From contig JACPAV010000002.1 of NCBI GenBank assembly GCA_016180645.1, forward strand, positions 1 to 64,000: a DNA stretch of 64,000 nucleotides, written 5' to 3'. This stretch comes from Nitrospirota bacterium (GTDB taxonomy: Bacteria > JACPQY01). Below the pieces are notes generated by a model that saw nothing but the letters and a program-made list of their open reading frames with translations, was not told the DNA's origin and searched no databases. Of this stretch, positions 5,174 to 21,715 are shown one piece after another. The position numbers and the translations under genes were made by a program. Position 1 is the first letter of the stretch; every line of letters starts with the position of its first letter.

Positions 5174-6607
5174 TCAGGACTTCGGTTTCTGAAACACAGA
5201 GCCGCCGAGAATTTCCCTGTACACTTCGACTTCGGCGGCGTTTTTCAGAAGGATCGCTTCCGGCCCTTCCCCAAAGGCCTCCACCTCCGCACGCATTCCA
5301 TCCATCAGCGTGGCACAGGCGGCCAGGAACGGTGCCGCGTAGGAATGCGAGGCCGTCCCCCTGAGCTTCCGCCATCCCTCGATCGCTTCATCCACCTTTC
5401 CGACCAGATAGGGTAGCAGCGGAAGGAGGGCCGCAGCCAAGGGCCCGTATTTCTCCGATCGGGTCCCTTCCGAAAGCAATCGGCACGCCGTGGCGATGCG
5501 CCGTCCGAAGGCCGGGTCCCCCATCGAGGGAGCCTGCCACCGCCACACAAGGGCCTGCCGCAACAGGCCGCGGCCTAGAAGGAATTTGTGCTCCGGGCGG
5601 TTTCTCACCGGCAACCCCCTTCGCTCAATCAGATCCTGAAGGGCCGGGGCAATCATCTCCGCACGCGCCTCGGGTGTGTGCTGTTCAACCACGCGCCGCC
5701 ATCCGCGATAGGCAATCGCCAATCGTTCCTCTCCGTGCCGGAGATACCGTTCAATCCGATCCATGGCGTCGGCCGCGTCGGCATGCCGGTAGGCGACGAA
5801 ATCCTCTCCTTCTTCAAACAACGCGCGGACGGAGGGTGCCGGCGAATCGCACAGCAGCATCGCGCCGCACCCCATGGCCTCGAAGACCCGGAAATTGGGG
5901 GCATCGACGACGGATTCAGAGCTCTGCCTCTGCGCCGGCGGAGGCGCAGTTTCATTGATCACGATTTTCGAAGAAGGATAGACGGATTCGAACTCCCCCG
6001 CGCCCACATGCAGGCGATACCGGGTACCCACCTTCGAGAGCAGCTCTTGGAAGAACCGGTGGCGCTCCGGGTGCAGGCGGACGTCCCAATTCCCGACGAA
6101 TGCGACGTCGATGGGGCGTTCACGCCCCGGATCAAACGAGGAGACCCGCTCGCGGGCGCCTTTGTAGTACAAGGGACAATAGGCGACATCGTTCGTCGAT
6201 CCCCTCCGAATGAAATATTCCACGGAGCCCTGGGTATCCAAGTAGACACGGTCGAACACGTGCGAGAAGTCCCATGCCCAGGAATTGAGATGGAAATGCG
6301 TGTCGTGGAAATAGGCCACGGAGGGGATCCCCAAGTGGTCGAGATCAAGGAGCGAATCGCAGAGGGCCCACCCGTGGAGGAAGAAAGCCACGGGGCGATC
6401 CTGCCCCTTCCCCACGGACTCCAGGATGGAGGGCAGATGATAGTTGGCCAGGGTGGCCGGGGCGGCCTGAATCTGGAGGTAGGCGATTCGATAGAACTTT
6501 TCCAGCGCGCGGGAAAGATCGTCCGGCCAGAAAGCCCAAAGGAGTACGGGCTTGGAAGCGGGCCTGTGGGCGGCTGACGAGGTCAAGTCGTTCCCATTGA
6601 CCCCCAA
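5174..6607 (-). CDS. CgeB-like glycosyltransferase (Glyco_trans_1_2 type); start uncertain
   Basis: RPIDVAFVGN, YPSSKIVINE, NFRVFEAMGCGAMLL, ERLAIAYRGWRRVVEQHT..AR. Confidence 0.75.
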   Translation of the reverse strand: MGVNGNDLTSSAAHRPASKPVLLWAFWPDDLSRALEKFYRIAYLQIQAAPATLANYHLPSILESVGKGQDRPVAFFLHGWALCDSLLDLDHLGIPSVAYFHDTHFHLNSWAWDFSHVFDRVYLDTQGSVEYFIRRGSTNDVAYCPLYYKGARERVSSFDPGRERPIDVAFVGNWDVRLHPERHRFFQELLSKVGTRYRLHVGAGEFESVYPSSKIVINETAPPPAQRQSSESVVDAPNFRVFEAMGCGAMLLCDSPAPSVRALFEEGEDFVAYRHADAADAMDRIERYLRHGEERLAIAYRGWRRVVEQHTPEARAEMIAPALQDLIERRGLPVRNRPEHKFLLGRGLLRQALVWRWQAPSMGDPAFGRRIATACRLLSEGTRSEKYGPLAAALLPLLPYLVGKVDEAIEGWRKLRGTASHSYAAPFLAACATLMDGMRAEVEAFGEGPEAILLKNAAEVEVYREILGGSVFQKPKS

Positions 6608-6610
6608 GCC

Positions 6611-7183
6611 CTACACGACCGGGTCCACGTCCATCAGGCGGGCGGGCGGACCGGCCGGAGGGGCCTTCGTCTCCTGGCAGGCTTGGAATAGACCCTTCGG
6701 GGTGAAGAAAGCAAAATGGGTATCGGGGCCGAGTGACACCATGTCGCCGTCCGTCAGGGGCTTCTGTTCCCGAGGGGCGAGCCGCTTCCCGTTCAAGAAC
6801 GTTCCATTGGTTGAGGTCATCTCGACGAGATTGGCCGTCCCCGCCGCAGGACCCGCCAGGAGATACGCGTGATGTTTGGAAATCGTACTGGCCGCAATCG
6901 GGAGGTCGCAATCCTCTCCCCGTCCCACAAACACGCGGTCGCCCGCAATGAACGCCCCGGTTTCCTTGCGAACCACCTTGAAGACTTCGCATTTCGGATC
7001 GGGACGGAAGGTCGAACGAGATACGCCCAAGCTCGCCCGCTCTTGGTATGCGGTGCGGGCGGCCAACTTCGAAGCCACCACTTCGCGCGGCACTCTCACA
7101 AGAAACGGGTGCTTGAACTCGGCAAGCACCTGCTCCTCGGACTTTCCCGTCAGCGCTTGTTTGTAGGTTGCCAGTGTATCCAT
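6611..7183 (-). CDS. FHA-domain protein
   Basis: VGR...CDL.I...TISKHHA...STNGTFLNG...L.DGD.VSLG FHA signature. Confidence 0.9.
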   Translation of the reverse strand: MDTLATYKQALTGKSEEQVLAEFKHPFLVRVPREVVASKLAARTAYQERASLGVSRSTFRPDPKCEVFKVVRKETGAFIAGDRVFVGRGEDCDLPIAASTISKHHAYLLAGPAAGTANLVEMTSTNGTFLNGKRLAPREQKPLTDGDMVSLGPDTHFAFFTPKGLFQACQETKAPPAGPPARLMDVDPVV

Positions 7184-7213: not shown

Positions 7214-8959
7214 CTACTTGACCTCCTTCAAGCCCACGAGGGTGTAGCCGACGCTCAACGTGGATGAGGCAGACGCGCATCCGGACTCGAGGCTGCCAGG
7301 ATTTCCTGAGAGGGACCATCCCGATCCACTGGCTCCACCTGCATCGGCACAGAGCACTTTTGCCGTGCCGGCGGTTCCCACGGCGCTCAGTCTACTGAAC
7401 CCCGAGATGATGGCGACTTTGTTGTACGCCTGAAAATTGAGCTTTCCGTCCGGATCCGCCCCGATGTAAAAGAATTGAATGTTGTTGTTGGTGGACACAT
7501 TGACGTCTGTCGCCTTGGTCACCATCGGCCTTGCATCCACCGCGTAGATCGTTTTGGCGGCGTCCTCTTTGATGGAGTAGAGCTCGAGGCGGAAATCCAT
7601 CTTGGGGAGGTTGAGGACGTAGGTTTCCCGCAGGACCGTCTCGCTCACTTTGTGGGGCACCGGCGCGAGGCGGGCGGGCGTGGGCGTGATCGCGTTTCCG
7701 TTCTCGTCCCTGACCGGCTCCTGGCCATCGGCCGGAGTCTGCCCATACAGAAAGCCCTCGGGGTTCAAGACCAGGTCCAAGACAAACTGCACTTTGTTTT
7801 CCAAATCGGCCTGGGTGATCGTGAATGCCTTCTGGAATCTGAAGACACCCTTGGTGAGGCTCTGTCGAACGATCATCTCCTGGGAAGATCCCGGTGTGCC
7901 CGCCAGATTGTCCGGCTGCGTAAAGAAAACCGAACTCGTCCCCGTGCCGCTCTGGAGGATCACCGGGCCATCCTTGGTCACCAGCGTTCGACCATCGTTC
8001 ATGGTGAGTTCGGCGTTGATCTTGGCGGCGGGCGCGTCTTCGACGATCGCCCAGACGTAGTCGCCGGCCACACAGGATGAGCCGGTCCCGGAACCTTCTG
8101 TTCGACCATCGTCCCGAGTTCCTTCCGTTGATCCCGTTGTCTCCTTCGGGCAGTCGCCGGGGCAGACGAAAGGGTACTCGCCTTTGTCCTTCTCGCACAC
8201 CCCGTTGTTGTTGCAGTATCCGCTCTGAGTCTGCCTTTCGGGGGCCGCAGTTGTGGTGCAGGGCGCCAGCTCGGTCTTGATGTTCTGAAGCCTATTTAGA
8301 TCATTGGGGTCGATGACGCTCACGAACTTCGCGTCGTCCGCCTTGGCGTTGTCACCGTTGTAGTTCTCCCAGTAACTCAGGCCCTTGGAGGTTTGTTCGG
8401 GATCCATATGCAGGATGATGCAGTTCCTGAATGCGTTGTTGATTTGGTGCCCCGACCCTCCCACCGTGGCCCCCTCCTCCTTGCAGATCAGAATGCGCAG
8501 AACGTAGGCCCGCAGGGATTTGATCTGGGCTCCGAGGGACTGGCCCTGCACCTTGGAACTTGAGGATTGCCGCCGCGGCAACGCCTCTTCGAAGGCTCCA
8601 GACCCGACCCAATCCCAGAAGCGGGGGGGCGCGCCGGGAAGAGGCTCGAGAGTCGCGTTACGGACATTGGTTGTGATGAGGGCCTTGGTCGGGATGACGA
8701 CCGGTTCGGGCGGTTTCGTCACCGGCGGTTCAGGCGGCTTCACGACGGGAGGCGGCTCGGTCTTGGTTGTATCGGTTTGCGTGGTCGTTGAGGTCGGTTG
8801 CGTAGTCGGCGCGGCCGGCTCCTCAGCTGGCGCGCTTGGCGTTGTGGTCTGCGTCGTTTTCGGCTCGCTTCCTCCACAACCGCCGGGCGATGCAGCCACA
8901 TTGAAGACAAACAAGGTAACCAATATTCCGATGGGAGCAATCCAACGCTTGGTGCTCAT
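7214..8959 (-). CDS. Secreted/lipoprotein paralogue C of the PGGCGG/LEPLPGAPPR family (unknown function)
   Basis: Signal peptide, then ASPGGCGG, a Thr/Pro linker, NVRNATLEPLPGAPPR and a Cys-rich module. Clearly homologous along its length to 10370-12070 (e.g. NDGRTLV..GPV.L, KDD.AKTIYAVD, IISGF.RL). RBS aaagga upstream. Confidence 0.85.
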   Translation of the reverse strand: MSTKRWIAPIGILVTLFVFNVAASPGGCGGSEPKTTQTTTPSAPAEEPAAPTTQPTSTTTQTDTTKTEPPPVVKPPEPPVTKPPEPVVIPTKALITTNVRNATLEPLPGAPPRFWDWVGSGAFEEALPRRQSSSSKVQGQSLGAQIKSLRAYVLRILICKEEGATVGGSGHQINNAFRNCIILHMDPEQTSKGLSYWENYNGDNAKADDAKFVSVIDPNDLNRLQNIKTELAPCTTTAAPERQTQSGYCNNNGVCEKDKGEYPFVCPGDCPKETTGSTEGTRDDGRTEGSGTGSSCVAGDYVWAIVEDAPAAKINAELTMNDGRTLVTKDGPVILQSGTGTSSVFFTQPDNLAGTPGSSQEMIVRQSLTKGVFRFQKAFTITQADLENKVQFVLDLVLNPEGFLYGQTPADGQEPVRDENGNAITPTPARLAPVPHKVSETVLRETYVLNLPKMDFRLELYSIKEDAAKTIYAVDARPMVTKATDVNVSTNNNIQFFYIGADPDGKLNFQAYNKVAIISGFSRLSAVGTAGTAKVLCADAGGASGSGWSLSGNPGSLESGCASASSTLSVGYTLVGLKEVK

Positions 8960-8980
8960 GGTGTCCTTCCTTTCGGTCGG

Positions 8981-10366
8981 CTAAGGCTGGCTGTCAGCCA
9001 GCGAGACTTCGTTGAAGGTCAGTGGAGAAAGACTTTCAAACCAGACATCCCCTGCGGTGAAGCGCGGTCCGGCCGGATGCATGAGAAAGTCCAGATCCTC
9101 TGCTTTCATGACGCGAAGGCCGGAATTGCCGGAGCAGTCCCCTGAGCCGGAGCAGGAGGCGACGGCGGAATAGTTCGAAGGGTTGAGGAGCAAGTCGGCA
9201 GTACCCGAATTGATGTCCTTGTACCCGATACCCTTGAAGCCGGCCGCCGGATTTCCCCGGATGGTGTGAAGGAGAGTGGAATCTCCGATCTTGTGCTTGT
9301 ACAGATTCCCCACCGCGCCTTGGTAATCCGTCACCTGACTGAAGACTCCATCTGAATTGACGGTTCCGGCAATCCGAACCCTCGCATGTCGGTTGTAGGC
9401 GGTTTGGACGTTTTCGTCCGGTTGGGGATTGTCGTAGTCCTGATTCTTCTGTTCATATCGAAGAACGCCCATCTGGGTATCAAGATGAAACGTGTAGGCG
9501 TCATTCTTGTCGCTCTCCTTGATGAATCTACCCGCACCCACTGCAAGCCCTTCTCCGTCTTTGAGCAGGAGCTGAAGGTTCAGTGATTCGCCCTGGATGA
9601 CGGTAACAATCTGAAGGCTTCGATCCCAGGCTCCCGTCTTGCCAAACGCAGAGGGTGAGGAGGCGGTGATGGTGACCTGGATCGGCTGGGCGGGAAAATT
9701 GGGGACAAAATTATCCGGGAAGCATTCGGAGTCGGCGGGGTTGACGGTGGCCGTTCGCGATGAGCCATTGTAGGTCAGGTCGGGCACGGCCTTTTCCGCA
9801 AGGCACACGAAGCCGCGGGTTAGGAGCATCCGGCCCAGGGGACTTTCCGGCCCCGTGCCGGGTTGCTTTAGAACGCAATAAAACAGCGCCGGCGCGTATT
9901 TCGGGTCAAGGTCCGGGAGCGGAATTCCCGAAGCATCCAGCGGCGATGCGCCATCCGTGCACGTCGGTTCGAGTTGGACCGGATATCGGAACATGCCGGG
10001 CAACGAGGCGCGAGGGGGCGCGCCCGGGAGGGGCTCCAGCGAGGCGCCACGCGCGGTGCTTCCTCCGATCAGACTCGACCCGCCGGCGGTCATGGAGGTC
10101 GTCACCGCGTTCGTCACTTTCAAGAGCACGTCGCTCGCCTTCGAGGGCTTTGGGGGCGCTACGGAGGTCGTCCCGGTAGTCGGGGTCGTTGGAGTCGTCG
10201 CTTCGGGAATAGCGGCTTGATCGCTGCCGGTGGTCGCCGTGGACGTGCCGGTCGCCGTGGCGGGCGAGCTCTCCTTCTCGCTTCCCCCGCATCCGCCGGG
10301 TCCTGCTGCAACCCCAATGGCGAAAACGCCGGACAGGAGAAGGCCTGTTGTGAAAGTTTTTCGCAT
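8981..10366 (-). CDS. Secreted/lipoprotein paralogue B of the PGGCGG/LEPLPGAPPR family (different C-terminal body)
   Basis: Signal peptide, AGPGGCGGSEKESSPATAT, Thr-rich linker, SLEPLPGAPPR; 3-nt gap to the upstream gene. Confidence 0.85.
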   Translation of the reverse strand: MRKTFTTGLLLSGVFAIGVAAGPGGCGGSEKESSPATATGTSTATTGSDQAAIPEATTPTTPTTGTTSVAPPKPSKASDVLLKVTNAVTTSMTAGGSSLIGGSTARGASLEPLPGAPPRASLPGMFRYPVQLEPTCTDGASPLDASGIPLPDLDPKYAPALFYCVLKQPGTGPESPLGRMLLTRGFVCLAEKAVPDLTYNGSSRTATVNPADSECFPDNFVPNFPAQPIQVTITASSPSAFGKTGAWDRSLQIVTVIQGESLNLQLLLKDGEGLAVGAGRFIKESDKNDAYTFHLDTQMGVLRYEQKNQDYDNPQPDENVQTAYNRHARVRIAGTVNSDGVFSQVTDYQGAVGNLYKHKIGDSTLLHTIRGNPAAGFKGIGYKDINSGTADLLLNPSNYSAVASCSGSGDCSGNSGLRVMKAEDLDFLMHPAGPRFTAGDVWFESLSPLTFNEVSLADSQP

Positions 10367-10369
10367 AAC

Positions 10370-12070
10370 CTATTTGATCTCCTTCATGGTAACCAATGTG
10401 TAGCTGGTATCTATCGTTGACGCCAGTGAAGCGCAACCGGCCGCGGGAGTGCCGCCGACACCGGCCAGATTCCATCCTGTACCTTCTCCGGAGGCGGTCA
10501 AGTCACTACAAATAACTTTGGCCTTCCCTGTCGCCCCTTCGGCTGCCAGCCTCGTGAATCCGGAGATGATCGGGGTTTTCAGAGGGTTCTGGAAATCGAT
10601 CTTATCATCCGCGTTCGGCACCACATAGGAGATGGCCGTGTCGGCCAGTGCGGCGGTGGTATCCTTTGTGGCGATCACTCGAAGATCCACGGCATAGATG
10701 GTCTTCGCCGGGTCATCCTTGACAGAGTACAAATCCAACCTGGCATTGTAGGTCGGTAGCGTGAACAGATAGCTCTCAAGAACAGTGTTTGAGCTACCTC
10801 GGCGCGGCACCGGGCCCACACGTAGGTTCGAGACAAAAATGCTGTTGCCGCTCAGGTCTTGCATCTGGGCCAAACCGAAGGGGGGGTTGCGGTAGCCTTG
10901 GAGAAGGCCGGCGGGGTTGAATATAATGTCGAGTGTAAACTGGGCTTGGCTGTCTAGGTCCGCCTGTGAAATCGTGAACGGCGACTGGAATTTGAAGATG
11001 CCTCCCACGTAGGAGGACACGGCGACTTCCTGTGAGGACCCGGAGGTTCCTTCAAGGTTCTCCACCGTAACGATCGTCCATGGAGTTCCTGCTCCAGCTT
11101 CACGAAGCGTTACCGGGCCTTCCCTGCTCACCAGTGTGCGCCCATCATTCAGGATCAACTCCCCGTTGACCTTTACGAACGGGGCTACCTGGAACACACC
11201 GTACACATACGACTTGGCCGCCGCACCCGCCGCCGATGTCGTCCCTCCCACTGAACAATCCTGGGGACAGTTGGCTTCATTTTCCCCGAGTGGCGCTTCG
11301 CATGTGCGGTTGAGATTGCAGGGGCCCGGCTGAGGTCCACTGATCAATGTCCCCATGTTCAGCCCACTGTTTAGGTCCACCGGGATGTTCTGCAACTTGG
11401 CGGCGAGATCCTTCGCATCCATGAGGTTGACAAAATTCCCCGAGTCGGCCTTTGCCTGATCGACCGTGTAGGAGCTGCTTGCGGCGAGTGAACCGCCGGG
11501 TTCCGGGGCCTTGTAGAGTTGGAAACAATTCGTGCTTTCCTGAAACAAATTCCCTCCGCCTCCGGGGCCGTTGAGTTGGTAGCCCTGCTCATTGCAAATG
11601 GCGACGCGAAGGAGATAAACCTTGAAAGATTTCAGTTGGGACGCCGTGGACTGACCGACGATCTGGGCTGAAGTCATCTGGAGCCGAATCGGGCTCTCAA
11701 GAAAGAACCCCGGCAGTTTCGAGAGTCTTTCGGAAGCCCGAAACGAGCCTCCGGCGTCACCGGTACCGAATAGGATCGTTCGGGGTGGCGCTCCGGGAAG
11801 CGGCTCCAGCGTGGCATTCCGAACATTAAGCGTCAGTGTCGCCTTCTTGGCTGAGATTGCAGGCGGCTGGTCCGTGGTGGAGTCGGATGTCCCACCCGGC
11901 AATTGCCCGGGCTTCGTTGGATCCGTCGGTTGGGTGGTGGGCTGAGTCGCCGTGGCGGGCGTGCTCTCTTTCTCTCCACCGCCGCAGCCGCCGGGGGAGG
12001 CGGACGCGCCGAAGGCCAGCGTGAGGGCCAGCCCGGCCGTGACCATGAGGTGCTTTTGGTTCTTCATCAT
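10370..12070 (-). CDS. Secreted/lipoprotein paralogue A of the PGGCGG/LEPLPGAPPR family
   Basis: Signal peptide, ASPGGCGGGEKESTPATAT, NVRNATLEPLPGAPPR, Cys-rich module; C-terminus YTLVTMKEIK matches YTLVGLKEVK of 7214-8959. Confidence 0.85.
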   Translation of the reverse strand: MMKNQKHLMVTAGLALTLAFGASASPGGCGGGEKESTPATATQPTTQPTDPTKPGQLPGGTSDSTTDQPPAISAKKATLTLNVRNATLEPLPGAPPRTILFGTGDAGGSFRASERLSKLPGFFLESPIRLQMTSAQIVGQSTASQLKSFKVYLLRVAICNEQGYQLNGPGGGGNLFQESTNCFQLYKAPEPGGSLAASSSYTVDQAKADSGNFVNLMDAKDLAAKLQNIPVDLNSGLNMGTLISGPQPGPCNLNRTCEAPLGENEANCPQDCSVGGTTSAAGAAAKSYVYGVFQVAPFVKVNGELILNDGRTLVSREGPVTLREAGAGTPWTIVTVENLEGTSGSSQEVAVSSYVGGIFKFQSPFTISQADLDSQAQFTLDIIFNPAGLLQGYRNPPFGLAQMQDLSGNSIFVSNLRVGPVPRRGSSNTVLESYLFTLPTYNARLDLYSVKDDPAKTIYAVDLRVIATKDTTAALADTAISYVVPNADDKIDFQNPLKTPIISGFTRLAAEGATGKAKVICSDLTASGEGTGWNLAGVGGTPAAGCASLASTIDTSYTLVTMKEIK

Positions 12071-12085
12071 AGTGCTCCGATCCCG

Positions 12086-12262
12086 TTATGGAATGTTGAA
12101 GATGAGGATGCGATTGGCGGTATTGTCAGCGGCGTAAAGGCGGCCGTTGGCGCCGTCGTATGCCAGCCCCTTGACCCCGCCGCAAGCGAAGACAAGCAGC
12201 GCCAGCGCCGGAGGCCGCAACAGCCGGGAAACCCTTCGACCGATTCCAATATTAGTTCTCAT
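12086..12262 (-). CDS. 58-aa lipoprotein-signal peptide fused to a single NHL/beta-propeller blade (possible internally deleted remnant)
   Basis: RBS aggagggaga before ATG 12262; MRTNIGIGRRVSRLLRPPALALLVFAC-GG-VKGLAYDGANGRLYAADNTANRILIFNIP. Confidence 0.6.
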   Translation of the reverse strand: MRTNIGIGRRVSRLLRPPALALLVFACGGVKGLAYDGANGRLYAADNTANRILIFNIP

Positions 12263-12385
12263 GTCTCCCTCCTGAGCACATTGTGACACCTGAACTCTGG
12301 GGCTGATGGATCTCGTCCGAATTGAGGCTACAGCCGGTTTGCCCTCCACATTCCGTCCGAGCTTGACGCGCATGGTACCCACCTT

Positions 12386-12646
12386 TCACTCCGGCTTCAA
12401 TGGATGATGGCGCTCAGCATTTGATCCTGCCCCGAGAACGGGGTCTGTTCCCCGGCCACGTGATGCGTCCTGCCGCCAAGAGGGTTCCGCCGGCAGGAAC
12501 GCCCTTCGAATCCCGACCGGAGAAGGGGACGTTTGGACGACCCCGCCTGATCGGTTGCCGCTCGCCGCTGCACATCCGGTTGAGAAGGCGGTGAGCAATC
12601 CCATGAGCACGAGCAGGAACGCCGAGATCCACGTGGCGGGACGCAT
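12386..12646 (-). CDS. Small putative lipoprotein, hypothetical
   Basis: MRPATWISAFLLVLMGLLTAFSTGC signal with Cys; gaggtg RBS overlapping the end of the upstream kinase gene. Confidence 0.45.
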   Translation of the reverse strand: MRPATWISAFLLVLMGLLTAFSTGCAAASGNRSGGVVQTSPSPVGIRRAFLPAEPSWRQDASRGRGTDPVLGAGSNAERHHPLKPE

Positions 12647-12656
12647 GGTTTTCACC

Positions 12657-14072
12657 TCAGCACGCCATCCCATCGCGCTCGCGGGTCTTCTCGGCGGAAC
12701 CTGCGCCATTCGCTCGCGTTCGGGCATCAAGAGCTTCTCGGACCTTCAGCGCCAAGCCGTCGAGTGTGAAAGGTTTCTGGATGAAATCGGCACCTGGGGT
12801 GCGGTTGCCGTTCGAGGCCATACGGCGCTCCGTGTAGCCAGACATGTAGAGCACCCGGATCTCCGGAAGTTTTTCGCGCAATCGCTGAACCACTTCGATG
12901 CCGCCCATGCGGGGCATGACCATGTCCGTGATCAAGAGATGGACCGGCCCGTTGTGCGATTCCAGCGCCCTGAAGGCCTCGATTCCGTCGGCCGCCTCGA
13001 TAACGGTGTAGCCGGTGGCCGTGAGGAATCGCGCCGCGAGATCTCGGACCATTCGTTCGTCCTCCACGAGGAGGATGGTTTCCGTGGCCGATTCTGCCGG
13101 CTTCTGTTTCGCCTCCACCCCGCACGGCGCGCCCCCCGCCGACGCGCGAGGGAAAAACACTTTGAAGGTCGCCCCGCGATCCGGCTCACTGTAAACGGAC
13201 ACGTGCCCGCCGCACTGCTTTGCAATTCCATACACGGTGGCCAGTCCCAAACCGGTGCCCTCCCCCTTCGCCTTGGTGGTGAAGAACGGTTCGAACACCC
13301 GCGAGAGGGTCTCACCATCCATCCCATGCCCCGTATCGCTCACCGCCAGCATGACATGGAGTCCCGGCTTCGCCTCGGGATGCTGAGACACGTAGGCTGA
13401 GTCGAACTCGACGTTCTGGGTCTCGATCGAGATGCGGCCTCCCATCGGCATCGCATCGCGCGCATTCACCGCGAGGTTCATGAGAACCTGCTCCACCTGG
13501 CTGGGGTCTGCATGGATCTTTCCGATGCCGGCCCCCAAGCCGACCTCAATGGCGATGTCCTCCCCTACAAGGCTCCGGAGAAGTTTGCTCATGTTCTCGA
13601 CGATGACGTTGAGATCGATGACCTCGGCGTGGACCGACTGTTGGCGGCTGAAGGTGAGAAGCTGGCGCGTGAGGGCCGCAGCGCGTTCGGCAGATCGGAC
13701 GATCTGCTGAACTTCAAGCCGAACCGGATCGTCCGACGGTAGACGGCGCATGACGAACTGGCCGTGTCCTAGGATGACCGTCAGGAGATTGTTGAAGTCG
13801 TGTGCGATCCCGCCCGCCAGCCGCCCGATCGCCTCCATCTTTTGGGATTGCCGGCGTCGTTTCTCATATTGATTCTTCTCGCCGTCCCCAGAGCAACGCG
13901 GCGCGGGGCGGTGCCGCTCTTCACGCACGTTCCTTTCACCGTCCCCGCAGCGGAGCGGAGCGGGACGTCTCCTCTCCTCCAGTTTCGATCCCATGCTTCC
14001 ACCCTTGTCCGCCGCGGCGGACTTGCGGGTGAAATCACCTTTCGACGTTTCCGTGTTTCTGAACGTGGCCAT
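12657..14072 (-). CDS. Cytoplasmic hybrid histidine kinase/response regulator (CckA-like HisKA-HATPase-REC) without a recognisable sensor domain
   Basis: H-box AGGIAHDFNNLL, N-box QVLMNLAVNARDAM, DTGHGM, FEPFFTTK, GTGLGL; REC ILLVEDE...LLITDMVMP...FIQKPF; RBS gagggggt before ATG. Confidence 0.93.
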   Translation of the reverse strand: MATFRNTETSKGDFTRKSAAADKGGSMGSKLEERRRPAPLRCGDGERNVREERHRPAPRCSGDGEKNQYEKRRRQSQKMEAIGRLAGGIAHDFNNLLTVILGHGQFVMRRLPSDDPVRLEVQQIVRSAERAAALTRQLLTFSRQQSVHAEVIDLNVIVENMSKLLRSLVGEDIAIEVGLGAGIGKIHADPSQVEQVLMNLAVNARDAMPMGGRISIETQNVEFDSAYVSQHPEAKPGLHVMLAVSDTGHGMDGETLSRVFEPFFTTKAKGEGTGLGLATVYGIAKQCGGHVSVYSEPDRGATFKVFFPRASAGGAPCGVEAKQKPAESATETILLVEDERMVRDLAARFLTATGYTVIEAADGIEAFRALESHNGPVHLLITDMVMPRMGGIEVVQRLREKLPEIRVLYMSGYTERRMASNGNRTPGADFIQKPFTLDGLALKVREALDARTRANGAGSAEKTRERDGMAC

Positions 14073-14146: not shown

Positions 14147-14225
14147 ACTTATACGAACACGGCGACCACCGGTTTCCGCGTTACGCGTGGTTGTTTGTCA
14201 CGTCACGTGGCGATTTGCACCGTGC

Positions 14226-17200
14226 ATGAATTCCGATATACTCCTGCGCGTGCCCGACAAAATCCTGGGAAGGCTTGAAATCCTCCAGACTCTGGGTGAG
14301 GGCCAGTTCGGCCGCGTTCACAGGGCGTTCGATCACGTACTGAACAAGGAAGTCGCCGTGAAGGAGTTCTTCAGAATGGACCTGGAGAAGGCCGACACCT
14401 CCTTCCAAACAGAGATGAAGGTTCTCGCCCACCTCCACCATCCCGCCCTGCTCAAGGTGTACGACCTGCTGGTGGACGATACGACCGGTTCGCACTTCCT
14501 CACGGAAGAACTGATCGCCGGGCGAGATGCGTCGAAGGTTCTCAAGGAGGCCGATTGGGAAATTCGATGGCAGCTCTTCGCCCAGCTCCTCCAGGGTCTC
14601 GAATACCTTCATCAGCGCGGAATCATTCATCTCGATATCAAGCCGCCCAACGTGCTCGTCAGTGCCCCCGCGCACGAAGGAGGCATTCCCCAGGCCCGAA
14701 TCCTCGACTTCGGGGTCGCCGACGAAATCGGAAAGTTCGACAAGAAGGGACTGATCGCCGGGACGTTTCCGTACATGGCGCCCGAAGTGGTCCGCGGTGA
14801 TCACATCGACGGGCGGGCCGATCTCTACTCACTCGGCATGATGTTCTTCGAAGTCTTCAAAAGGCCTTCTCCTTTGCCCGATGGCCCGGCCGGCGAATGG
14901 CCCGGCGGCGGCGAAGCGGGAGGGACGGTGGCCGCGGACGCGAGCGATATCGCCCCAAGCACGGAAGCTCTCATTCAGGAGACGCTTAACCGAACCGCAC
15001 CGCTTCGGACGGATTTCCAAGACGACGTACCCGAAAGCTTTCGAGAAGTCCTGATCACCCTACTCGATCCCAACCCGCGGCGCCGGTTCTGGTCCGCCAA
15101 CGATGTCATCCGCCGCCTTAACGCGCGGGTGGGACGCCGCTTCCTCCTCGAACCGGGACGTCTCCGCATTCCGGACAAGGCCACGGCCGTGCTCTCCGGA
15201 CGAGCGGAGGAATTCAAGGAGGTCGTCGGTTGGATGGAGCAGTTCCAGAAGACGGACGCCACACTATTCTTGGGGGTCATCGAGGGCCGCGCTCAGAGCG
15301 GCAAGTCGGCCGTCCTCGAGGAGGTTCGTCGCTGGGCGGAACTCGCCGATCGATTCGTCGTAAGCCTTCGCGGACCCTCCGAGGGACCTGCCGAACTTTT
15401 CATGAGACTGATGCACGATTCGGACGTCAAGGACCTCGAACCTCTTGCCCCATTCCTCAAGGCCCTTCTCCCGGCCCGTTTCGGGAGCGCGGAAGATCCT
15501 CCGGAACTGGAAACCCGCCCCGAGCTCCTCAAAGCGAGGGTATTGGAGAAGCATGCCGAGGCTCTCGCTCTGCTCCTGAAGAAACGACCGGTCATTCTGC
15601 TCGTGGACGACGTGGATCAGAAGAAGGATCTGGCGGAACTTCTGACGTTCCTCGGACGGGTGCTCCACGAGGCCGCAACCGCATCGGCACCCCCGGGCAA
15701 GATGAAAACGTTCCTTCTGATGACCGCTTCCGCCTCCGAGGGTTTGATGGTCGATCCGAAGCCTTCGCACACCCTGACGCTGAAAAACTGGTCGAAGCCT
15801 ACGGCATTGGCGGTGCTGAACACTCTCCTGGCGGTTGAGCATGTGCCGGAAAAGCTCCTTCAGAAATTAATGGAGAAGACCGAGGGAATGCCCGGGCTCC
15901 TCGTGGAATACGTCCGGCTCCTCGTGAATGAGGTCCTGAAGCCGGGGGAAGACATCGAGGGCCAGCTCGATGCCCTCGATTGGCGGAATCTCGACGCCAG
16001 CCTCGACCTGGCGGCGTGGTATCAGGGAGACGTCGAACGACTCGACAACCAGGAAAGATCGATCCTCCGCTGGCTGAGTCTCACTTCATTGGAATTGGCC
16101 GCCGAAGACCTTGAACTTCTGGATCCTCCCCTCGTGGGACAGGCCGCAGCCGCCATTCGGAAGCTCCAGGATCTTGGCTGGGTCCGGCAGGGACCCAGCG
16201 GCTACCAACTTTCGAGCGAACTGAGACGGGAGGCCTCGTATCGGGAGATTCCACCCGCCGACGAATTTCGAATGCGTCTCCTCCTTGGAGAGAAATGGGA
16301 GGACCTCTCGTTGTCCCGGTTCGACAGACAGGGCGAGTCGGAGGGCGTCGGGCTCGAACGGGCGCACCAGTTCTTCCTGGGCGGCGACTCCGCCCGGGCC
16401 TTCGCTCTCGCCAAGCCCGAGATCCAACTCATGCTCAAGCTCAACCGGCCCGAACCCGTCGTGCAATTCCTGAGTTCACACGACATCCCAGCCCAGGCGT
16501 TGCCGGAAGAACCCCGCCGCCAGTATCGGAAATTCCTCGCGCAGGCCTTCCTGCAAACCGCGAACTTCCCGGGAGCCACCGAAGGGTACGGCGAGCTGCT
16601 TTCCGAGTCGCAGGAGCCGAGGGAGCGGGCGGAGCTGGCCGTCGCCTTGGCGCGGGCTCACCGGTACGGCGGACAGCTTAAGGAAGCGGCGGAGACGATC
16701 CGCCAGGCGCGGGCGCAGATGGATGAGACTTCCCCCTTTGTACCCAACCTGGACTCTCTGCTGGCTGACATCCTCGTGGAGCACGCCCGTTATGACGAGG
16801 CGGCCGGTATTGCCCAGCCGTACCTCACGGGCGGGCGCCCCTGTCACGTCGAGGAAGCCCTCGCCTTCCGACATGCCGTGGCCAAGGTCCATTTCTATCA
16901 TGGCCGCATAGAGGAGGCGATCGAACTCTCGAAGCTGAACGTGACGGAAAGTCAGCGTTCGGGACGGCCCAGCCGGCATGCCCTCGCCCTCAACATGCTG
17001 GGCGCGGCCTATCTCAAACAGGGAAACATCGCCGAGGCCACGCCTCTCTTCCACTCCTGCTCCGCCATTAGCGCCGAAATCGGCGATCTCCGAACGATGG
17101 CGCTGGCGTGCGTCAACCTCGGGATGTGCTACCACGAAACCGGCGATCTCGAAGCGTCGATCAAGTACCACGAGAAGGCCGCCGCGATGTTCCGACGGAT

Positions 17201-19580
17201 TTCCGACCGGTCCTACGAGGCCCGGCTCCTGTACAACCTGGGTCAACTCCGGCGGGAGGCCGGCGATTTTGAGGCCGCGGAAGACGTGCTGGCGGATGCC
17301 ACGCGGCTGACCCAGGAGCTCCACATGGCCCACATCCAGGCCAAAATCCGGCTGGAGAGATCGGATTGTTTCCGCGCCCGCGGCCTGTTCGCTCGGGCCG
17401 CCGAGGAATGCGCGTCGGCCGAAACGATCTTCCGGGATCTCAATATCCCGGCGGAAATTCTGGCCGCGCGACTCAAGCGCATCGAGATCACGATCGATGC
17501 CGGGGAACCGGGCGCGGAATCCGCCGCGTCAACCGAGTTGGCTGAATGCGAGAAGGACCCTCTCCTGCACGAGTCGCCGATCCTCGACATCAAGGCGCTC
17601 TACGTCAAGGGACGCCTGGTTTCCAAAAGAAGCCCCGCCCAGGCCCGCAAACTTCTCGAACAAGCCATGACCAAGTTGGAGGCCATGCCCGGACCGGACC
17701 CAGAGCTCAAGCAGCGGATCAGCGATGCGTTCCGCCACGCCACGCCGGGATCGGAATCTCCCGCGGAGGAACATCGGCCGATCGAACCCATGAAGGAGGA
17801 ACGCGAAATGCCCGAGAGGACACAAACACTGCCGGTCGCATCCGCTCCGCCCCCACGCGACTACCCGGCGACCGTCGTTGCAGCCACCCCTGCCGCATCC
17901 GATCTCCCGCGCCCGGCCGCCCCGCTCCGGCGGCGAAGCGATATCGAAAGCTTGTCGCTGCTGGAGGTCGTGCGGAAGATCAATTCGCCGCTGGATGTGC
18001 AAGACGTCCTCGTTGAGATCGTCGATTCCCTCGTCGGCTTCATGGATGCGGAACGGGGATTTCTGCTCCTCGTGGAGGAAGACAAGCTTGCTGTGCGGGT
18101 CGCCCGGTCGAAGGAGAAGAAAGACGTTCGCGATCCGGCCGAAAGTTTCAGCCTCAGCATCGCGCAGGAATCTTTGGATCAGGCCAAGCCCATTATCACC
18201 CTCGATGCGGCCAAAGACCCACGCTTCAAGGAAGCCGCCAGCGTCGGTCAGCTCCAGCTCAAGTCGGCGGTCTCGGTGCCCCTCTTCATGAAAGGCGAGG
18301 CGCTTGGAGCGATTTATCTCGACACTCGGCTCAAGACCGGCCGGTTCACGGAGCAGGACGTGCCGATGCTCTCCGCCCTTGCGGAGCTGGCCGCCCTGGC
18401 GATCTTCCGCGCCCAGCTCATTGCTCAGAACGTGCGCGACCAGCGCGAACTCCGCCGAAGTTTGAAAGAGACCAAGGAGACGAAGCAAAAAGTCGATCAG
18501 TTGAATACTGAGTTGGAGAATTCGAACAGGAAGCTTCAGGAGACGGTCCAGCACCAGGAGGAGGAACTGACCAGCGCCCAACGCCGTCTCCAGGACCTCG
18601 TTCACGATGAACAGCCAAAATACAAGTACGAGCGCATCGTGGGGAACAGTCCGGGCATGCGGCAGGTTCTGCTTCAGCTCGACCGGGCCGTGGAGATGCG
18701 CGTTCCCGTGCTCCTCGTCGGAAAGAGCGGCACAGGGAAGGAACTCATGGCCCGCGCCATCCATTACAATTCGCCGTCGAAGGACCAGCCTTTCGTGGCG
18801 GTCAATTGCACGGCGATTCCGCAGGAGCTTGTGGAATCCGAACTCTTCGGCCACGTCCGGGGCGCCTTTACGGGAGCCGACCGCGACAAGCCGGGGTTGT
18901 TCGAAACGGCTGAGGGCGGCGCCCTGTTTCTGGATGAGATCGGCGATGTCCCTCTCGCGATTCAGGCAAAACTCTTGCGTGTGCTCCAAGAAAGCACAGT
19001 CAGACGGGTCGGTGGCAACACCGAGAAGAAGGTGGATGTGCGCGTCATCGCCGCCACGAATGTCGACCTCAAAGATCTGGTCGCTCAGAAGAAGTTCCGC
19101 GAGGATTTGTACTACCGACTCCGAGTGTTCCGCATCAGCATCCCTCCGCTGCGCGAAAGGCGGGAGGACATTCAGGGCCTCACCGAATATTTCTTGAAGG
19201 AAATCGCCCGCCAGTACCGCGTGCCGGCCAAAACGCTGTCGAAAGCGGCGCTGCGCTTGCTGGTCGGTTACGACTGGCCGGGGAATGTTCGAGAATTGGA
19301 GAACACACTGCGAAGCGCCTTCGTCCTGAGCAAGAACAGGGAGATACAGGTCGAGGATCTTCGCCAGATGGAGGAGCTTTTCGGCGAGGGAGGCCCGGCG
19401 CCCGTTCGGGAAGGGCTCGGCCTTCGCGAAGCCCTCCTCGAATTTCAGAAGAACAGGATTGAGAATGCGCTTCGGCGACACGATGGAAGCGTCACCGAGG
19501 CCGCCAAGGAACTCCAGGTCGACCGCTCCCAGCTCTCCCACTGGATCCGCAAGTTCAAACTGGCTGACAAAAGCAACTAG
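14226..19580 (+). CDS. Ser/Thr kinase - P-loop ATPase - TPR - GAF - sigma-54 activator (AAA+) - Fis HTH fusion
   Basis: Kinase [34 protein letters not shown]-loop GRAQSGKS with [11 protein letters not shown]-like helices; GAF (AERGFLLL...SAVSVPLF...GAIYLD); [51 protein letters not shown]-terminal HTH. Confidence 0.93.
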
Positions 19581-20824: not shown

Positions 20825-21715
20825 TTATGAAATGACGGTGCGATTGCGGCCGGAGTTCTTGGCCTGGTAGAGGGCGCCGTCCGCCTTCTTGATGAACTCC
20901 TCGGAGGGAAGCAGGGTTTCCGCATCGATGACGTATCCGCCCACGCTCATGGTCACGGGAATCCGGTGCGGCTCGAAGATGAAGAGATGGTTCATCACGC
21001 TTTCGCGGATTTTTTCCGCCATGGACCAGGCATGCTGGGAGTCCAACCGGGCCGCCAGCACACTGAACTCCTCTCCCCCGTACCGCGCAAAGAGGTCCTC
21101 TTTGCGCACGCACGAGCGGGCGACGGACGCCACGCCCTGAAGGACTTGATCCCCTGCCACGTGGCCGAATTGATCGTTGACCTTCTTGAAATGATCCACG
21201 TCCATCATGAGCAGTGCCAGCGGTTGTTTGGTCCGTTTCGTTTCGCTGAGCTTCACTTCCAATTGGTCGAGAAAAAACCGCTTGTTGAAGACGTCCGTGA
21301 GGCCATCGCGCGTGGCCATCCGGTACATTTCGTCCACGCAGGAGGCCTCCACGTCGTCGGCGAGAAAGAACTTCACGGCGGTGGCGCCGATGTGGATCCG
21401 GTCCCCATCCTTCAGGGCCATCTCGTCCACCCTCGCCCCGTTCACATACGTTCCGTTCGTGCTCCCCACGTCCCGCACGCGGACTCCGCCCGTTTCCATG
21501 ATGATCTCCGCGTGGTGGCGTGACACACTATCATCCGTCGGAAACCGGATCTCCATGTCCGTGCCGCGGCCCAGTCTTGTTCGGCCGGCGGCGATGTCCA
21601 GCCGCGTCCCTCGAAGCTCGCCGGTGAGAACGAACAAGCACGCCTTCTTCGCCTCACCGGCGCCCGCGGGCGACGTGGCGCGCCGGGTGGTTCGTTGCGT
21701 CGTTCGCTCGGTCAT
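20825..21715 (-). CDS. FHA-domain diguanylate cyclase
   Basis: FHA (LGRG...SVSRHHA...STNGTYVNG); DGLTDVFNKR, DVDHFKKVNDQFGHVAGD, ARYGGEEF, ADGALYQAK. Confidence 0.93.
   Translation of the reverse strand: MTERTTQRTTRRATSPAGAGEAKKACLFVLTGELRGTRLDIAAGRTRLGRGTDMEIRFPTDDSVSRHHAEIIMETGGVRVRDVGSTNGTYVNGARVDEMALKDGDRIHIGATAVKFFLADDVEASCVDEMYRMATRDGLTDVFNKRFFLDQLEVKLSETKRTKQPLALLMMDVDHFKKVNDQFGHVAGDQVLQGVASVARSCVRKEDLFARYGGEEFSVLAARLDSQHAWSMAEKIRESVMNHLFIFEPHRIPVTMSVGGYVIDAETLLPSEEFIKKADGALYQAKNSGRNRTVIS

Follow-up and report, generated by a model that had tools for sequence, protein, structure and literature searches.

Four stalked lipoproteins and their invariant peptide

The 64-kb window analysed here (G000:C31:1-64000, by which the whole stretch of DNA is meant) belongs to a bacterial genome of 4.7 Mb, 97% complete and assembled in 65 contigs, and carries three of the four genes for predicted lipoproteins that share an invariant ten-residue peptide, LEPLPGAPPR, the subject of the present work. 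These three genes are tandem minus-strand open reading frames (ORFs), separated by intergenic gaps of 3 and 21 nucleotides (nt): A2 (10370-12070) encodes a 566-residue lipoprotein precursor of family A, in which the codon of Cys29 lies at 11984-11986 and a stalk of 58 residues connects this Cys to the motif, as read from the ORF and from its alignment with A1; B1 (8981-10366) encodes a 461-residue precursor of family B (Cys26 codon at 10289-10291), as read from the ORF, an alignment and a structure model; A1 (7214-8959) encodes a 581-residue precursor of family A (Cys28 codon at 8876-8878), with a stalk of 75 residues. The fourth carrier, B2 (C13:73300-75039, plus strand), is a lipoprotein of 579/597 residues encoded on contig C13. 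An earlier note on this DNA had described three tandem exported proteins with a signal peptide, a PGGCGG sequence and a Thr/Pro linker; these ORFs and their features are confirmed, as are the three copies of the 10-mer at 8621-8650 (A1), 10010-10039 (B1) and 11780-11809 (A2), to which a six-frame scan of the genome added the copy of B2 (C13:73855-73884, plus strand). The peptide occurs exactly four times in the 4.7 Mb, preceded each time by a signal peptide, PGGCGG and a stalk.

The conserved block extends five residues further towards the N-terminus, giving a 15-residue sequence, [VA]-R-x-A-[TS]-LEPLPGAPPR, which reads VRNATLEPLPGAPPR in both A2 (11780-11824, minus strand) and A1 (8621-8665, minus strand) and ARGASLEPLPGAPPR in B1 (10010-10054, minus strand), where it has been inserted into a loop which varies among the members of family B and is modelled with a pLDDT below 50; the stretch spanning the motif and its Arg is RNATLEPLPGAPPRFWDW. 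In these proteins of 461-581 residues the motif is found at residues 88-119 (187-196 in B2), and is then followed by the folded body. That selection acts on the peptide, as the earlier note had argued, is borne out by the codons: over the 30 nt of the core, each of the six pairs of copies differs at 5-8 positions, all of them synonymous third-codon positions, with no replacement, which is the mark of purifying selection on the peptide and not of a recent gene conversion or of an element acting at the DNA level. Unlike the invariant motif, the stalks which separate it from the Cys (58, 75, 83 and 158 residues) are largely unalignable. Towards the N-terminus conservation fades gradually (R-x-A-T/S), and in the other direction it goes no further than the Arg, the next residue being F, A, T or W; a taper upstream and an abrupt stop after Arg would be the pattern expected if a protease recognized the peptide through its non-primed side. 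An N-glycosylation sequon (NAT in A1 and A2) was considered and rejected, B1 and B2 carrying GAS and SAT at that position.

The distribution of the motif is narrow. Among 61 genomes scanned with a degenerate DNA pattern for the 10-mer, that of the window (G000) is the sole match; allowing up to one mismatch, the pattern is present in one of the two genomes of the phylum. In the contig collections the pattern was met at 15 loci (metagenome_contigs) and at six (genome_contigs), in scans that may omit records very near the window's genome; the exact peptide is encoded in some frame at 14 of these 21 loci, and its absence from the other seven is due to the DNA pattern, which also admits Phe and Ser codons. 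No signal peptide, lipobox or stalk lies upstream of the motif at any of the 14 exact-peptide loci of the contig collections; most of them, judged by eye, are Arg/Pro-rich off-frame readings of GC-rich DNA, while at one (L019) the motif falls inside an apparent cytoplasmic enzyme. A word-based search with residues 86-130 of A1 against 5.8 billion proteins, covering lengths of 319-1017 residues, returned seven candidates, the query itself being the only match at E<=10, and the motif strings were not found in the literature searched. The phylum is represented in the genome set by two species genomes; the second (G001, 84% complete) contains neither the motif, nor a homologue of A or B, nor a peptidase of family C25 (see below). 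By these comparisons the motif is specific to the lineage. The pattern search, which the earlier note had proposed as a way to find co-occurring proteases or transporters, thus gave no other copy in a lipoprotein context beyond this genome, in which two C25 peptidases are co-encoded.

The N-terminal region of all four proteins consists of a hydrophobic signal peptide, the sequence A(S/G)PGGCGG(S/G/T)E and a Thr/Pro-rich stretch. Read from the sequence, it has the attributes of a lipoprotein leader: a basic n-region and a hydrophobic h-region precede the lipobox, whose final Cys falls within the range of about 15-35 residues usual for such leaders; the genome encodes one Lgt and two LspA genes (C17:205152-205580 and C13:36242-36667). 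The VAA or ASA sequences just upstream of the Cys, of the AXA type, would also permit cleavage by signal peptidase I; lipidation is favoured by the conservation of the Cys in both wider families: in family B it is kept in at least 90% of the sequences, and P0105, a relative of family A described below, has it too. In the whole genome PGGCGG is found in a signal-peptide context only in A1, A2, B1 and B2. The P-G-G at positions -3 to -1 is atypical: in a crude prediction of about 190 lipoproteins PGGC is rare, the common boxes being LAGC, FAGC and LASC. Stalks rich in Thr, Ser and Pro are, on the other hand, common among the predicted lipoproteins of this genome, so that the stalk reflects a general habit of the genome and the motif alone stands out; in B2 the stalk also contains an inserted Big_2 Ig-like domain.

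The lipobox region and the motif form two separate islands of conservation which just these four proteins share. This, together with the rarity of PGGC and the two LspA genes, is what could be expected of a sorting or export signal, whereby the motif and PGG-Cys-GG(S/G/T)E would mark the proteins for a dedicated route (surface flipping, or the second LspA). The logic would be that of the lipoprotein export signal (LES) found on the surface lipoproteins of Bacteroidota, where a patch of negative charge occupies positions +2 to +5 after the lipid Cys: in both cases a short conserved peptide lies in the unstructured N-terminal region of a lipoprotein, and its reading by envelope machinery is proposed here. 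Unlike the LES, the motif is rich in Pro, has Arg as its last residue and is separated from the Cys by 58-158 residues, whereas known lipoprotein sorting signals occupy positions +2 to +5, and no dedicated transporter gene is found beside either locus; sorting is accordingly held to be unlikely.

The leaders also bear traces of a common history. The leader of A1 is closest to that of B2 (z 8.1 for the signal peptide and 5.2 for the stalk, with none of 300 shuffles reaching the score), whereas A2 and B1 share GGCGG(G/S)EKES(T/S)PATAT in the first 18 residues past the Cys, as well as a segment S-LPG-x-F after the motif (z 3.6). Such similarity across the boundary between the families suggests, at the level of sequence, that leaders have recombined between unrelated lipoprotein genes, and implies that the N-terminal module was exchanged or homogenised, which fits the earlier description of the motif as portable. 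A structural hinge, that is, a rigid Pro-rich junction which caps the stalk, needs no partner in trans and was inherited together with a recombining leader, would profit from this mobility of N-terminal modules. It is nevertheless improbable: a mere spacer would not keep 10-15 residues invariant beside a stalk diverged beyond alignment, and in family B the motif comes only after an N-terminal helix native to the family, and is therefore not merely part of a swapped leader.

Two unrelated bodies and their motif-less relatives

The bodies that follow the motif are of two kinds. A1 and A2 are 42% identical and B1 and B2 38%, while no relation between the A and B bodies is detectable (hhalign probability 12.7%), so that the claim of the earlier note, that the middle gene has an unrelated body and the motif behaves as a portable signal, holds. 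No named family covers these proteins, which agrees with the earlier note in so far as the motif was not recognized there from any such family: in Pfam no match was obtained for A1 or B1 at E<=1 and only a sub-threshold DUF7507 for A2; in NCBIfam nothing exceeded a curated cut-off, the only row, at a chance level of 10 bits, concerning B1; Pfam searches with the bodies alone, or with a Cys-rich insert of family A, matched no family; and the A and B profiles, run against Protein Data Bank (PDB) sequences, met with no match below E 0.2.

Family B comprises a fair number of uncharacterised lipoproteins of about 400 residues, to which no Pfam family corresponds; an exhaustive HMMER search with B1 collected 101 proteins at E<=1e-3, the query included, and 44 at E<=1e-10. 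In its nearest Atlas clusters the commonest phyla are Pseudomonadota and Bdellovibrionota, and the family-B profile matched none of 400 other sampled genomes. B1 and B2 belong to it by significant similarity over the full length, by the Cys of the lipobox, by the helix near the N-terminus and by four further Cys residues (C136, C164, C188 and C215, invariant in an alignment of 60 sequences). In 57 of these 60 aligned members the motif is absent, and a variable loop leads from the conserved helix to the first of the four invariant Cys residues. The motif is limited to three rows, namely B1, B2 and P0046 (a fragment with 80% identity to B2), and these three are also the only members with the PGGC lipobox and the Thr/Pro stalk.

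Family A is smaller. A whole-length search found the two paralogues only, within the length classes searched; a search with the body alone added P0105, a 430-residue lipoprotein (E 3e-17, 28% identity) which is colinear with A1 and A2 down to the C-terminal CASAS...Y-x-x-V strand and is devoid of the stalk, of the motif (only 'APR' aligns) and of the Cys-rich insert. A1 is absent from the Atlas, and the Atlas scores of P0105, at most 0.85, are leads only. As both bodies have motif-less relatives, a single N-terminal add-on has been fitted to two different, older lipoprotein scaffolds within one lineage. As a side observation, the Cys-rich mini-insert of family A, C-x5-C-E-x3-G-E-x4-C-P-x-D-C, occupies 8108-8257 (minus strand) in A1 and has its counterpart in the corresponding region of A2, and a similar Cys-rich stretch is found in a 1289-residue ORF at C47:68778-68900.

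B1 was modelled with AlphaFold2 from a 60-row alignment, with a mean pLDDT of 83.5. Residues 1-70, which comprise the signal peptide and the stalk, are of low confidence; a helix at 77-95, conserved across the wider family B in the alignment, belongs to a block of pLDDT about 87-95; residues 103-126, which contain the motif at 110-119, fall below 50 and lie between this confident helix and the body. The body itself (about 130-461) is composed of helices at 157-167 and 176-193 and of about 12 long antiparallel strands forming one large curved sheet. Foldseek retrieved no PDB structure at E<=0.001; a search independent of Foldseek (VIA) gave a best Z of 9.6, with partial alignments to porin- and TonB-type barrels, which indicate a large curved sheet rather than a named family. 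The low-confidence loop is consistent with an exposed linear element. The amphipathic strand which the earlier note had placed before the motif does not hold for B1, where DVLLKVTNAVTTSM (DVLLKVTNA) is included in the predicted helix 77-95; for A1 and A2 this point has to rely on a model that is unusable, having been obtained for A1 from a two-sequence alignment with a pLDDT of 32.

The earlier note had gone further, and proposed a surface-filament system analogous to type V pili, in which a cut after the Arg would open a groove to be filled by the C-terminal strand of the next subunit. Type V pilins, according to PMC9046445, start out as lipoprotein precursors, which the gingipains Rgp or Kgp mature at the outer membrane before polymerisation. 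With FimA and Mfa1 the present proteins share the nature of lipoprotein precursors, a basic and here invariant Arg which follows an N-terminal secondary-structure element, and the co-encoding of peptidases of the gingipain family; in family A a C-terminal strand is also conserved. Unlike those pilins of Bacteroidota, the present proteins come from a different, two-species phylum and are known from sequence; they match no pilin family, the architecture of B1 as modelled, with its helices and single large sheet, does not resemble the all-beta, two-domain fold of pilins, in which the N-terminal strand covers a groove, and neither a long Thr/Pro stalk nor an invariant 10-mer is a pilin feature. 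Indeed, neither PF06321 (P_gingi_FimA) nor PF13149 (Mfa_like_1) was found in the three proteins of the cluster or in the whole genome, a Bacteroides control being positive; no pilin appears among the 50 VIA rows or in the Foldseek list for B1; and the N-terminal element of B1 is a helix and not a strand. The resemblance of the C-terminal YTLVGLKEVK and YTLVTMKEIK of A1 and A2, noticed earlier, is real; it loses its value as a sign of polymerisation since it is retained in the motif-less P0105, where it is ordinary fold structure. More generally, the fact that both bodies have motif-less, ordinary lipoprotein relatives indicates that they were not built around a cycle of cleavage and polymerisation. 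A filament of this kind is very improbable and, together with the hinge, the least supported of the readings.

Proposed recognition by a shared envelope factor

We read the motif, with a probability of about 0.5, as a short linear recognition element for a trans-acting factor of the envelope that the four proteins have in common. The reasons are that a sequence of 10-15 residues is invariant, that it lies outside both folds, that it is restricted to four proteins with an unusual lipobox and that its conservation stops at the Arg. The four lipoproteins would be built on one lineage-specific N-terminal module made of three parts: a Sec/SPII signal peptide whose lipobox, A(S/G)PGG-Cys, is unusual and continues into GG(S/G/T)E; a Thr/Pro-rich spacer of 58-158 residues, which would keep the folded body away from the lipid anchor; and the linear motif [VA]RxA[TS]LEPLPGAPPR at the entrance of the body, outside either fold, which would be read by a single factor. 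The most likely mechanism would be endoproteolytic maturation, in which an Arg-specific peptidase of the surface would take up LEPLPGAPPR in its non-primed subsites and cut directly behind the invariant Arg; the cut would either nick the bodies or detach them from the lipidated stalk. That a factor in trans reads the motif, that this factor is a protease and that it cuts after the Arg are three steps which we infer; cleavage after Arg, put forward only tentatively, is the leading version because conservation stops abruptly at this residue and because the genome encodes two giant C25 enzymes.

These candidate enzymes are two paralogues of 2311 and 2316 residues (C31:78389-85330, outside the window, and C47:1475-8458, both on the plus strand; L039 and L040). 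The sole Pfam domain of each is a C-terminal Peptidase_C25 (E 1e-84 and 2e-81), a domain present in none of 14 control genomes, and about 1800 N-terminal residues of each giant belong to no family. The C25 domains align with gingipain R, with a match for the His of GHG, for the catalytic Cys and for an Asp, which we take to be the S1 Asp163 of gingipain R. At its C-terminus each giant has a Gly/Cys motif together with a hydrophobic helix and a tail rich in Arg; the tail of the C47 enzyme scores 19.3 bits against a MYXO-CTERM cut-off of 20, a near-threshold value, and this MYXO-CTERM-like tail suggests that the enzyme may be anchored at the surface. The proposal of a 'protease or sorting site' put forward in the earlier note survives as a hypothesis, now with a concrete candidate enzyme; the specific claim that the giant C25 enzymes process the stalked lipoproteins after Arg at LEPLPGAPPR, as an undescribed maturation pathway in a candidate phylum, is a doubtful one.

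A number of considerations weigh against this reading. The C25 domain of the giants scores equally well against PorU, a sortase-like enzyme, and against gingipain R; the C25 genes lie 66 kb from the lipoprotein cluster or on another contig; and the co-occurrence opposes one genome which has everything to one incomplete genome which has nothing, and is therefore only a lead. A low pLDDT was in part to be expected for the motif loop of B1, most of the aligned sequences having a gap at that place, and family A is left without a usable model. The helix upstream of the motif in B1 is a confident, family-wide part of the fold, so that a cut after Arg119 would nick the protein and not free its body, unless the helix were displaced. 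Ten invariant residues exceed what most proteases need and would fit a docking peptide equally well; indeed, PGAPPR fits the PxxPxR consensus of class II ligands of SH3 domains. Cleavage, or for that matter any partner, is a reading drawn from sequences and a model. A predicted complex of two copies of B1 120-461 scored 0.03, against a mark of 0.42, and weighs neither way.

Docking deserves to be weighed at this point: an extended, polyproline-type peptide would bind one receptor non-covalently (an outer-membrane protein, a component of the S-layer or matrix, or a partner encoded in the operon), and would thereby gather the four proteins into a common surface complex, no cleavage being involved. 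The invariance of 10-15 Pro-rich residues with a PxxPxR-like core, their position in the exposed, low-confidence loop of the B1 model, the tandem arrangement of three carriers with gaps of 3 and 21 nt, and the helix of B1, whose persistence in the fold suits docking better than release, are all in keeping with such a role, whereas no candidate receptor was found, the abrupt end of conservation at the Arg would be less typical of docking peptides, and the fourth carrier, B2, is encoded at another locus. Docking is a possibility to be taken seriously, if short of probable. Within the view that the motif is a recognition element, endoproteolysis is ranked first, docking second and sorting third.

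The recognition element here proposed may also be compared with LPXTG, PEP-CTERM and MYXO-CTERM, in which a short, near-invariant peptide is likewise placed on unrelated exported proteins and is served by a dedicated processing enzyme; a MYXO-CTERM-like tail is itself present in this genome, on the C25 giant. Unlike these C-terminal sorting signals, which end the protein with a membrane helix and a basic tail, the motif is proximal to the N-terminus and is followed by no such helix, and no cognate enzyme was found.

Genomic surroundings and wider meaning

Downstream of A1, at a distance of 30 nt, the minus strand encodes a 190-residue protein with an FHA domain (6611-7183; Pfam FHA, E 5.7e-15), possibly a co-transcribed regulator to judge from the spacing only; a further 3 nt downstream lies the gene of a glycosyltransferase-like protein (5174-6607, minus strand; Pfam Glyco_trans_1_2, E 5.4e-24), a possible member of the same operon, whose connection with glycosylation of the stalks would be speculative. 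On the other side, a small ORF of 58 residues with the lipobox LVFAC (12086-12262, minus strand), recognized by reading of the sequence, ends 15 nt upstream of A2; it contains a single GLAYDGANGRLYAADNTANRILIF segment, which resembles one repeat of a beta-propeller, and may be a gene remnant, the longer ORF 12086-12382 having no Pfam match at E<=0.001. A second small ORF with a lipobox-like signal, FSTGC (12386-12646, minus strand), is found between A2 and the gene of a hybrid histidine kinase (12657-14072), which precedes the small lipobox ORFs and A2. Divergent from this run of histidine kinase and lipoprotein genes is a single ORF of 1797 residues (14187-19580, plus strand), in which a Ser/Thr protein kinase, an AAA_16 NTPase, TPR repeats, a GAF domain, a sigma-54 activator and HTH_8 are combined, and a few genes away an FHA-GGDEF fusion protein is encoded (20825-21715, minus strand); with the gene at 6611-7183, two FHA domains thus lie no more than 15 kb from a Ser/Thr kinase. 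For a sigma-54 promoter consensus 24 matches were counted where 22 would be expected, none of them upstream of A2, and the scan for promoters and terminators remained at chance level.

At the locus of B2, a 298-residue radical SAM protein is encoded directly upstream (C13:72220-73116, plus strand; L036:10221-11117); it bears a weak likeness to SPASM peptide maturases, the best match, ScmE, being at E 1.7e-18, far below the cut-off, and no radical SAM gene is found near the lipoprotein cluster of the window. A formylglycine-type site for this enzyme was considered and rejected: the motif for that modification, C/S-x-P-x-R, requires a Cys or a Ser where the present peptide has Gly, and the presence of the radical SAM neighbour at only one of the two motif loci was also counted against it.

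The DNA of the window is present in four sequencing runs, all from one groundwater study, and no RNA run is listed among them. If the C25 enzymes did process these proteins, gingipain-type maturation, or a transpeptidation like that of PorU, would operate on lipoproteins outside Bacteroidota, releasing or re-anchoring their bodies at the cell surface; were the motif a mere local docking tag, its interest would be confined to the lineage. Peptide signals in the tethers of lipoproteins are a known theme, of which the present finding is a variant restricted to one lineage. Peptide signals such as the lipobox, LPXTG, PEP-CTERM, the LES of Bacteroidota and the cleavage sites of type V pilins each uncovered a dedicated machinery, and an invariant motif on two unrelated lipoprotein families offers a handle for finding such machinery in an uncultured groundwater phylum of two known species.

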